This document shows, in pieces, positions 21,236 through 23,125 of a stretch of DNA of 64,000 nt (the stretch's first letter is position 1; every line of letters begins with the position of its first letter). Made by a program: the position numbers and the translations under genes. A model generated the notes under the pieces. It did no database searches. It saw nothing but the letters and a program-made list of their open reading frames with translations, and was not told the origin of the DNA. The stretch lies in assembly GCF_003334255.1 (NCBI RefSeq), contig NZ_QOWU01000003.1; one strand, written 5' to 3'. The stretch comes from Escherichia coli (GTDB lineage: Bacteria; Pseudomonadota; Gammaproteobacteria; Enterobacterales; Enterobacteriaceae).

Positions 21236-23125
21236 TTACGCATCACCACCGAAACGACGACGACCGGTAGAATCATCACGACGCGGAGCGCGGCCTTCAC
21301 GACGTTCGCCGCTAAAACGACGACCATCACCACGGCCACCTTCACGGCGTTCACCGCTGAAGTTACGACCGCCTTCACGACGTTCGCCACCGAAACCACG
21401 ACCACCGCCACGACGCTCACCGCCAGTATGCGGCTGTGCATCGCCCAGTAACTGCATGTTCATCGGCTTGTTGAGAATGCGAGTGCGCGTAAAGTGTTGC
21501 AGCACTTCACCCGGCATACCTTTCGGCAGTTCGATGGTGGAGTGAGAAGCAAACAGCTTGATGTTACCAATGTAACGGCTGCTGATGTCGCCTTCGTTAG
21601 CAATCGCACCAACGATATGACGAACTTCAACACCATCATCGCGGCCCACTTCAATGCGGTACAGCTGCATATCGCCAACATCACGACGTTCACGACGCGG
21701 ACGATCTTCACGGTCACCACGCGGGCCACGGTCGTTACGATCGCGCGGACCACGGTCATCACGGTCACGGAATTCACGTTTCGGACGCATCGGCGCATCT
21801 GGCGGTACGATCAGAGTACGTTCACCCTGTGCCATTTTCAGCAGTGCCGCAGCCAGAGTTTCGAGATCCAGCTCTTCACCTTCAGCAGTCGGCTGAATTT
21901 TGCTCAGCAGTGCGCGGTATTGATCCAGATCGCTGCTTTCCAGCTGCTGCTGTACTTTAGCGGCGAATTTTTCCAGACGGCGTTTGCCTAGCAGTTCTGC
22001 GTTCGGCAGTTCTACTTCCGGAATAGTCAGCTTCATAGTACGTTCAATGTTGCGCAGCAGACGACGCTCGCGGTTCTCAACGAACAGCAGCGCGCGGCCA
22101 GCACGACCCGCACGACCGGTACGACCGATACGGTGAACGTAAGACTCAGAATCCATCGGGATATCGTAGTTAACTACCAGGCTGATACGCTCAACGTCCA
22201 GGCCACGGGCTGCAACGTCGGTCGCAATCAGGATGTCCAGACGACCATCTTTCAGGCGTTCCAGTGTCTGTTCACGCAGCGCCTGGTTCATGTCACCGTT
22301 CAGCGCGGCGCTGTTGTAGCCGTTACGCTCAAGAGCTTCAGCCACTTCCAGAGTCGCGTTTTTGGTACGAACGAAGATAATCGCCGCATCAAAATCTTCC
22401 GCTTCCAGGAAACGTACCAGTGCTTCGTTTTTGCGCATACCCCAGACAGTCCAGTAGCTCTGGCTGATGTCAGGACGGGTAGTCACGCTGGACTGAATGC
22501 GCACTTCCTGCGGCTCTTTCATAAAGCGGCGGGTAATGCGACGAATCGCTTCCGGCATGGTTGCAGAGAACAGAGCGGTCTGATGACCTTCCGGGATCTG
22601 CGCCATAATGGTTTCAACGTCTTCGATGAAGCCCATGCGCAGCATTTCGTCAGCTTCATCCAGAACCAGACCGCTCAGTTTAGAGAGGTCCAGAGTGCCA
22701 CGTTTCAGGTGGTCCAGCAGACGGCCCGGAGTACCGACAACGATCTGCGGCCCCTGACGCAGGGCGCGTAATTGCACGTCATAACGCTGGCCGCCGTACA
22801 GAGCAACCACATTTACGCCGCGCATGTGTTTAGAGAAATCCGTCATTGCTTCAGCAACCTGTACCGCCAGTTCGCGGGTCGGTGCCAGCACCAGAATCTG
22901 TGGTGCTTTCAGCTCAGGATCAAGATTCTGCAACAGAGGTAAAGAGAATGCTGCAGTTTTTCCGCTCCCCGTCTGGGCCATACCCAGAACGTCGCGGCCA
23001 TTCAGCAGATGTGGAATACACTCTGCCTGAATTGGAGATGGTTTTTCGTAACCCAGATCGTTAAGGGCTTCAAGGATAGGAGCCTTCAGGCCCAGATCTG
23101 CAAAAGTGGTTTCGAATTCAGCCAT
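21236..23125 (-). CDS. deaD: DEAD-box ATP-dependent RNA helicase (cold-shock, CsdA)
   Basis: 629 aa from ATG 23125 ([21 protein letters not shown]); DEAD-box helicase family; RG-rich C-terminal tail. Confidence 0.95.

Follow-up and report, generated by a model that had tools for sequence, protein, structure and literature searches.

The cold-shock RNA helicase DeaD (CsdA) of Escherichia coli ends in a repetitive, Arg/Gly-rich tail, which is predicted to be disordered and varies in length, always in frame, between strains. Judged by its analogues in other helicases and by its pattern of conservation, the tail probably acts as a non-specific basic element for RNA tethering and annealing, and would add multivalency to DeaD condensates. 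The feature itself is already known as the Pfam family DeaD_C of a textbook E. coli gene. Analysis of the window, by which the whole 64,000-nucleotide stretch of E. coli DNA containing the gene is meant, makes small additions: a codon-usage account of the periodicity of the DNA, an in-frame allelic series encoding proteins of 585–639 aa, and the conservation of tail length between E. coli and Salmonella as opposed to the varying number of units in other Enterobacterales. The initial annotation, made from the sequence of the window, had described the repetitive tail, likened it to an auxiliary RNA-binding extension, and proposed it as a site of length polymorphism. The observation was confirmed, and the interpretation is supported with caveats.

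The tail is encoded at the end of a minus-strand gene, of which positions 21236–21450 form the final 71 codons and the stop. The gene, its last two segments, and the adjacent terminator are positioned as follows.

21236..23125, minus strand: deaD (csdA) coding sequence, 629 aa and a TAA stop (open reading frame with canonical ATG at 23125 and TAA at 21236–21238)
21437..21670, minus strand: DbpA-type RNA-binding domain (RRM-like), aa 486–563, adjoining the tail (Pfam DbpA 489–558; PDB 5b88)
21239..21436, minus strand: Arg/Gly-rich C-terminal tail, aa 564–629, predicted to be disordered (composition, Pfam PF12343, AlphaFold2)
21169..21193, minus strand: intrinsic terminator hairpin 3' of deaD (9-bp stem with 6 G-C pairs, followed by a T run)

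The gene had been named deaD in the initial annotation, and its score and coverage against the NCBIfam profile, its domain order, and its chromosomal context identify it as the DeaD/CsdA orthologue. The protein reaches 1397.5 bits against the DeaD equivalog NF008642 (PRK11634), for which the cut-off is 989, and its residues 1–629 align to positions 1–628 of the 628-position profile. The sequence of the window is of the E. coli K-12 type: queries of 551 nt and 215 nt around the tail match MG1655, NCM3722, and many further strains with 100% identity, and the protein is identical to the K-12 DeaD/CsdA entry DEAD_ECOLI of UniProt. In the list of open reading frames of the window, mtr lies downstream of deaD, and nlpI and pnp lie upstream; the order yrbN-deaD-mtr also appears in the RefSeq annotation of matching E. 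coli regions. The deaD region is present in 5,426 of 5,426 complete E. coli genomes, and in RefSeq this region bears the annotation deaD. A scan with Rfam returned no match within deaD, and the idea that the tail region contains a structured RNA or belongs to a known RNA family was therefore rejected.

The Pfam domains of DeaD follow one another as DEAD (residues 30–196), Helicase_C (232–340), DeaD_dimer (374–443), DbpA (489–558), and DeaD_C (568–629). The last of these, PF12343 ("DeaD helicase C-terminal disordered region"), matches with E = 9.2e-12 and 45.6 bits over its complete model (1–62 of 62). The tail therefore belongs to the same family as that of K-12 DeaD/CsdA and differs from it in nothing; only the list of natural length alleles given below is new to the family. 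The solved structures of CsdA cover residues 6–210 (5gju), 218–445 (5gi4), and 481–564 (5b88). None of the entries in the PDB covers residues 565–629, and 5b88 stops at Q564, where the tail starts. In an AlphaFold2 prediction for the RNA-binding domain together with the tail, based on an alignment of 41 sequences, the pLDDT is 49–64 for residues 561–629 and 86–98 for the adjacent RNA-binding domain. DSSP assigned no secondary structure elements to residues 561–629 of the model. The tail is thus predicted to be an intrinsically disordered region. Besides the tail, DeaD contains another charged stretch of low complexity, an Arg/Asp-rich linker at residues 445–485.

The tail consists of 30% Gly, 29% Arg, and 11% Glu. 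Its 19 Arg and no Lys, together with 11 Asp and Glu residues, result in a net charge of +8, and its aromatic residues are four Phe. GERR sequences start at residues 569, 580, 591, and 606, and define four GERR(E/G)G units, which are followed by a conserved terminus.

21392..21424, minus strand: repeat unit 1, aa 568–578, 11 residues (GERR at aa 569, first base 21421)
21359..21391, minus strand: repeat unit 2, aa 579–589, 11 residues (one copy of the 18-nt exact repeat GGCGAACGTCGTGAAGGC)
21314..21358, minus strand: repeat unit 3, aa 590–604, 15 residues (45-nt spacing to unit 4)
21281..21313, minus strand: repeat unit 4, degenerate, aa 605–615, 11 residues (second copy of the 18-nt exact repeat)
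21239..21262, minus strand: conserved extreme C-terminus, GRRRFGGDA-type motif, aa 622–629 (kept across Enterobacterales and in the E. coli length alleles)

The RG-rich peptide and the plus-strand DNA strings quoted in the initial annotation are both present exactly, and the repetition of units at the end of DeaD is beyond what composition yields. The tail contains 13 repeated 4-mers, compared to a mean of 2.0 and a maximum of 11 in residue shuffles, so that none of 5000 shuffles attained the observed number. Tandem Repeats Finder (TRF) reports a repeat at 21329–21424 with a period of 33, 2.9 copies, 71% matches, and a score of 108.

Despite its abundance of Arg and Gly, the tail is not a canonical RGG box. 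Regular expressions for the tri-RGG, di-RGG, and tri-RG motifs found no match in the tail, and the single di-RG match is RGGGRG at residue 572. The tri-RGG and di-RGG motifs are reportedly defined, by Thandapani et al. in 2013, as RGG repeats separated by 0–4 residues. With its ERRE sequences the tail is a polyampholyte, and neither a purely basic tract nor an RGG tract. Its affinity for RNA may therefore be lower than that of the analogous tails discussed below.

The DNA of the tail has a periodicity matching that of the protein, as had been noticed initially, and both the repeat search and the positions of GERR place the units at spacings of 33, 33, and 45 nt. The longest exact repeat is the 18-nt GGCGAACGTCGTGAAGGC, shared by units 2 and 4. 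An exact repeat of this length was attained in 11 of 3000 codon shuffles and in 606 of 3000 resamplings that preserved the protein and redrew synonymous codons from the usage of deaD. The mean DNA identity of the units is 0.672, compared to 0.650 ± 0.025 under synonymous resampling, and residues shared between units use the same codon in 26 of 43 cases, with 23.9 expected. The periodicity is no stronger than the protein repeat and the strong codon bias give, indicating that the repeat is old and not the product of a recent duplication. The periodicity is real, yet fully accounted for by the protein repeat and codon bias. A recent duplication or gene-conversion tract was rejected on the same grounds, as the codon identity is at the expected level. 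As the periodicity of the DNA adds no signal of its own, such regions need no flag as recent duplications or mobile repeats.

The length of the tail varies within E. coli, although modestly. The 629-aa protein of the window is encoded in approximately 95% of the 5,426 complete genomes, and tails that are slightly extended or shortened occur in about one strain in 20. A comparison of the 3' ends of deaD across strains identified seven length alleles, encoding proteins of 585, 603, 618, 629, 633, 634, and 639 aa, all of which are in frame and differ inside the repeat. The prediction of a polymorphic site in the initial annotation thus holds to this limited extent, and the tail is not invariant in length.

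The most common variant is an insertion of 12 nt that duplicates RREG in unit 2 (633 aa) and occurs in approximately 3% of complete genomes. This number was obtained from identity bands: a tail-only query with the allele of the window placed 163 genomes in the 90–95% band, and the +12 nt allele as the query matched 161 genomes with at least 99% identity and 26 more with 95–99%, some of which are perhaps partial alignments. Identity bands are unsuited to the tandem duplication of 15 nt, which megablast tiles as two perfect pieces. The +15 nt and −78 nt alleles were counted with junction-specific queries of 32–38 nt that have no 28-mer in common with the usual allele. The junction of the +15 nt allele, which duplicates GGERR (634 aa), was found in 50 complete genomes, two of which contain it in two places. 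An insertion of 30 nt (639 aa) is present in one genome examined (H131), and the +15 nt and +30 nt alleles together account for approximately 0.9% of complete genomes. The −78 nt allele (603 aa; 26 residues lost) occurs in 21 complete genomes, approximately 0.4%. The −132 nt allele (585 aa; 44 residues lost), in which all four units are missing, occurs in one. The −33 nt allele, encoding the 618-aa protein, was found in a larger collection that includes draft assemblies. Among exact proteins in the larger collection, those of 633 aa and 634 aa are encoded on at least 1000 contigs each, the 603-aa protein on 687 contigs, some of them from Shigella boydii, and that of 585 aa on four contigs.

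All five junctions characterized at the DNA level are positioned at direct repeats of 5–18 nt, which is a signature of slipped-strand or microhomology-mediated events. The repeats are GTCGT for the +12 nt allele, TGGCGGTG for the +15 nt and +30 nt alleles, the 18-nt exact repeat for the −78 nt allele, and GCGTCGTG for the −132 nt allele. The 78-nt deletion extends between the 18-nt exact repeats, with its left end in unit 2, which is also the site of the RREG duplication, and its right end in unit 4. The 132-nt deletion extends between two GCGTCGTG octamers, the right of which spans the last codon of unit 4 (aa 615–617). Every length allele resides on its own haplotype, 9–42 SNPs away from the window. 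The 78-nt deletion is associated with two downstream haplotypes that differ by 6 SNPs, all of them 3' of the junction, a pattern compatible both with independent deletion and with recombination. Variants of ±24 nt in the linker of residues 445–485 were found in only about eight genomes, which makes the tail the main indel site of deaD.

The variation respects the reading frame. All indels in the tail are multiples of three, and the SNPs between E. coli alleles, including those in the tail, are all synonymous, apart from alignment artefacts at deletion edges. No out-of-frame deaD allele was seen among the complete E. coli genomes; V-rich out-of-frame products are limited to frameshifted fragments from short draft contigs. 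Alternative-frame open reading frames over the tail (21213–21545 on the plus strand and 21226–21441 on the minus strand) were rejected as coding, given that the SNPs are all synonymous in the frame of deaD. A tandem-repeat contingency (phase-variable) locus was likewise rejected: the units are 33 or 45 nt long, multiples of three, and imperfect at 71% likeness, no exact repeat exceeds 18 nt, the variants are in frame, and approximately 95% of genomes share one length.

The DeaD of Salmonella has 629 aa and the same four-unit layout as that of E. coli. The two proteins differ at 6 of 66 positions in the tail and at 9 of 563 in the rest of the protein, indicating that the architecture of the tail is retained but that its sequence evolves faster, by several-fold. 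Tails of other Enterobacterales are 50–89 aa long and contain two to five GERR-type units; Klebsiella-type tails have one extra 11-residue unit and a duplicated APRRDD. These sequences were drawn from a homologue search with the RNA-binding domain and tail, and nearly all of them are partial proteins lacking full lengths and taxonomy. The RNA-binding domain is present in 134 of 150 distant representatives, and 104 of these 134 have a tail of 20 aa or more, with a median of 48 aa. The distant tails are basic, of low complexity, and rich in Arg or Lys, and Arg and Gly together reach at least 40% in only 24 of them. Tails could not be aligned across the distant relatives. As judged from these sequences, it is the kind of tail that is conserved and not its sequence.

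The rapid divergence, the tails that cannot be aligned between distant relatives, and the existence of viable isolates lacking some or all of the units are the traits of an essentially neutral low-complexity appendage drifting by slippage, to which the contingency locus rejected above would be equivalent. The natural deletions of 26 and 44 residues indicate that the number of units is not strongly constrained. However, a basic tail is kept in most relatives, the tails of E. coli and Salmonella are identical in length and layout, the SNPs of the tail among E. coli alleles are all synonymous, and the frame is intact in the complete genomes. A neutral tail is very improbable.

The most constant part of the tail is its end. 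The sequence RRRF(G)GDA or RRRDA terminates nearly all Enterobacterales tails despite the varying number of units, and the motif is kept in all E. coli length alleles, since every indel preserves the frame. The terminal RRRFGGDA could accordingly be imagined as a contact site, for docking or regulation, with protein partners such as RNase E of the cold-shock degradosome, ribosomal particles, or, as a degron, proteases. There are precedents for such a function in other helicases: the disordered region of RhlE2 suffices for interaction with RNase E (PMC11260450), and C-terminal degrons are reported for cyanobacterial CrhR-like helicases (PMC9117542). However, no documented partner of the DeaD tail was found in the available literature, and the sole partner mapping that was found places the contact with NudC in the N-terminal part of CsdA and not in its C-terminal part (PMC10654059). 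Moreover, the preservation of the frame also has a simple explanation in avoidance of the hydrophobic V-rich out-of-frame product. We consider a docking function to be improbable.

Tethering and annealing of RNA is the function to which the analogues point, and the likeness to an auxiliary RNA-binding extension drawn initially fits the Pfam family, the predicted disorder, and the position of the tail behind the RNA-binding domain. The closest analogue is Hera of Thermus thermophilus, likewise a dimeric DEAD-box helicase composed of a core, dimerization domain (DD), and RRM-like RNA-binding domain (RBD), with a disordered Arg-rich tail directly after the latter. The core-DD-RBD architecture of CsdA is that of Hera and CshA (PMC11850223). 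Deletion of the Hera tail reduces RNA affinity 25-fold, and the tail contacts duplex RNA and remains disordered when bound (PMC3695512). In contrast to the repetitive 66-residue tail of DeaD, in which acidic residues are mixed in (ERRE), that of Hera has approximately 19 residues, of which six are Arg, and no repeat units; the two sequences cannot be aligned.

The tails of Mss116p, CYT-19, Dbp2, and Ded1 are also unstructured and basic; they tether RNA non-specifically to the core and carry annealing activity (PMC10193013; Mallam et al. 2011, cited in PMC3590231). The RGG C-tail of Dbp2 is needed for annealing and tethers RNA (PMC10193013). These eukaryotic and mitochondrial chaperone tails are canonical RGG/RG sequences, some of them Arg-methylated, whereas the DeaD tail does not match the di- and tri-RGG motifs and follows an extra folded RNA-binding domain. 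RhlE1 and RhlE2 of Pseudomonas aeruginosa have C-terminal disordered regions that differ between the paralogues and promote phase separation as well as the binding and unwinding of RNA (PMC11260450). RhlE1 and RhlE2 belong to another helicase subfamily, without the dimerization and RNA-binding domains, and RNase E binding is a feature of the RhlE2 region. CsdA itself speeds up annealing independently of ATP, and its basic C-terminal domain was proposed as the site (PMC3590231).

Several observations count against a strong role of the tail. A search of the available literature found no experiment isolating DeaD residues 565–629. A CsdA construct comprising the core, dimerization domain, and RRM, but without the C-terminal tail, retained ATPase and unwinding activities according to PMC11850223, which summarizes Xu et al. 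2017; the tail is thus not needed for catalysis in vitro. The viability of isolates without 26 or 44 residues of the tail, and its nature as a polyampholyte that does not match the RGG motifs, point in the same direction.

It is possible, although rather unlikely, that the tail is chiefly a scaffold for phase separation, in which Arg clusters serve as "stickers", Gly residues as spacers, and the number of units sets the threshold of condensation, with tethering being secondary. [quoted passage not shown] 2019). Purified DeaD phase-separates in a salt- and concentration-dependent manner into droplets that fuse with one another and recover from bleaching (PMC12758526). The C-terminal disordered regions of RhlE proteins tune phase separation with differing strength (PMC11260450), and the DeaD tail is multivalent and predicted to be disordered in a protein that is dimeric. 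However, no mapping of condensation to residues 565–629 was found in the portions of the DeaD condensate literature that were available, and an equal contribution could come from the charged linker of residues 445–485. The tail, with its 66 aa, is short, offers no aromatic-rich stickers apart from four Phe, and does not match the RGG definitions. The scaffold function also overlaps with tethering and does not exclude it.

If the tail is primarily a tethering and annealing element, the following mechanism can be proposed. The disordered, net-positive tail, with its four old and degenerate GERR(E/G)GG(R) units, would extend from the RRM-like RNA-binding domain of dimeric DeaD like a flexible electrostatic "tentacle" and would bind RNA irrespective of its sequence. 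Tethering would increase the local concentration of RNA at the helicase core, and the tail would speed up ATP-independent strand annealing. Two tails per dimer, each with several Arg clusters, would make the protein multivalent and so favour the condensates that DeaD forms with RNA in cells. The DNA repeat is a by-product of the protein repeat, and its short direct repeats (5–18 nt) probably give rise, on occasion, to in-frame gains and losses by slipped-strand or microhomology-mediated events. Such gains and losses have probably produced both the low-frequency allelic series of E. coli and the differing unit numbers of other Enterobacterales.

In terms of units, the allelic series of E. coli comprises tails with zero, two, three, or four units, or with four units and extra RREG or GGERR pieces. 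The 50 complete genomes with the +15 nt allele are mostly human-derived, the +12 nt haplotype is approximately 2% diverged from the window, and the −78 nt allele is common to E. coli and Shigella boydii. It would be a long shot to propose that the number of units is non-neutral, tuning the condensation threshold of DeaD or its performance under cold or stress, and that some alleles have spread with their lineages for this reason.

Beyond annotation, the significance of the feature is slight, as the gene, its domains, and the disordered C-terminal region are already curated in Pfam, NCBIfam, and, for the folded domains, the PDB. The natural in-frame series of DeaD proteins of 585–639 aa may provide "free" constructs for testing the role of the disordered region of a helicase in RNA tethering and condensates.

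The in-frame deletion of 78 nt from the deaD tail, which lies between the 18-nt exact repeats of units 2 and 4, occurs in L005 (NZ_OX460316.1) and L010 (NZ_CP032426.1), two sequences that encode the identical 603-residue protein WP_005001325.1. The two haplotypes carrying the deletion differ at six sites, all of which are positioned 3' of the deletion junction, and no differences were found across the 279 nt on its 5' side. This one-sided distribution of differences points to one of two histories: either the deletion arose more than once, or recombination occurred with its breakpoint at the repeat.

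Besides the tail, DeaD contains a second low-complexity stretch, the linker that joins the dimerization domain to the RNA-binding domain:

21671-21793, minus strand, low-complexity linker, DeaD residues 445-485 (41 residues)

Arginine constitutes 37% and aspartate 22% of the linker residues, and the underlying DNA includes a 24-nt direct repeat. Variants with 24 nt gained or lost in the linker are rare, present in approximately 8 of the 5,426 complete E. coli genomes (for example, in strains H207 and H231). In the same genome collection, one of the places matching the deaD 3' region and linker belongs to a plasmid record, not a chromosomal one, so that one genome contains two copies.

Two long alternative-frame open reading frames were called over the tail:

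21213-21545, plus strand, antisense reading frame of 110 residues, rich in proline, arginine, and serine
21226-21441, minus strand, same-strand alternative frame of 71 residues, rich in valine

Both are by-products of runs of CGT, GGT, and GAA codons without stops. Many short protein fragments from draft assemblies are frameshifted into the valine-rich frame (VVKAVV...), indicating that frameshift errors readily arise in the tail repeat during sequencing or assembly.

The deaD stop codon is followed after 43 nt by a terminator hairpin, which in one strain (H30) has lost 1 nt and carries one altered base:

21169-21193, minus strand, intrinsic terminator with a 9-bp stem including six G-C pairs, followed by a T run

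Away from deaD, seven sites in the window matched RNA families at the Rfam gathering threshold: the SraG small RNA, the S15 (rpsO) leader, naRNA4, the rimP leader, two tRNAs, and the greA leader. All are expected in this region of E. coli.

Rfam match sites:
26492-26663, plus strand
26893-27007, minus strand
28520-28590, minus strand
33289-33389, minus strand
33481-33554, minus strand
37340-37423, minus strand
44076-44197, minus strand

Two features are located at the deaD start:

23126-23191, minus strand, upstream extension of the deaD reading frame by 22 codons, mechanical call
23118-23198, minus strand, yrbN, small reading frame of 26 residues, RefSeq 'protein YrbN'

The mechanical call begins at a TTG at 23191, 22 codons 5' of the accepted ATG, and gives a protein of 651 residues; some database entries (P0129) list DeaD with 650 residues. 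The longer versions probably reflect a difference in start-codon annotation, not biology. The overlap of yrbN with the deaD start codon is 8 nt, a gene layout that suggests translational coupling of yrbN and deaD.
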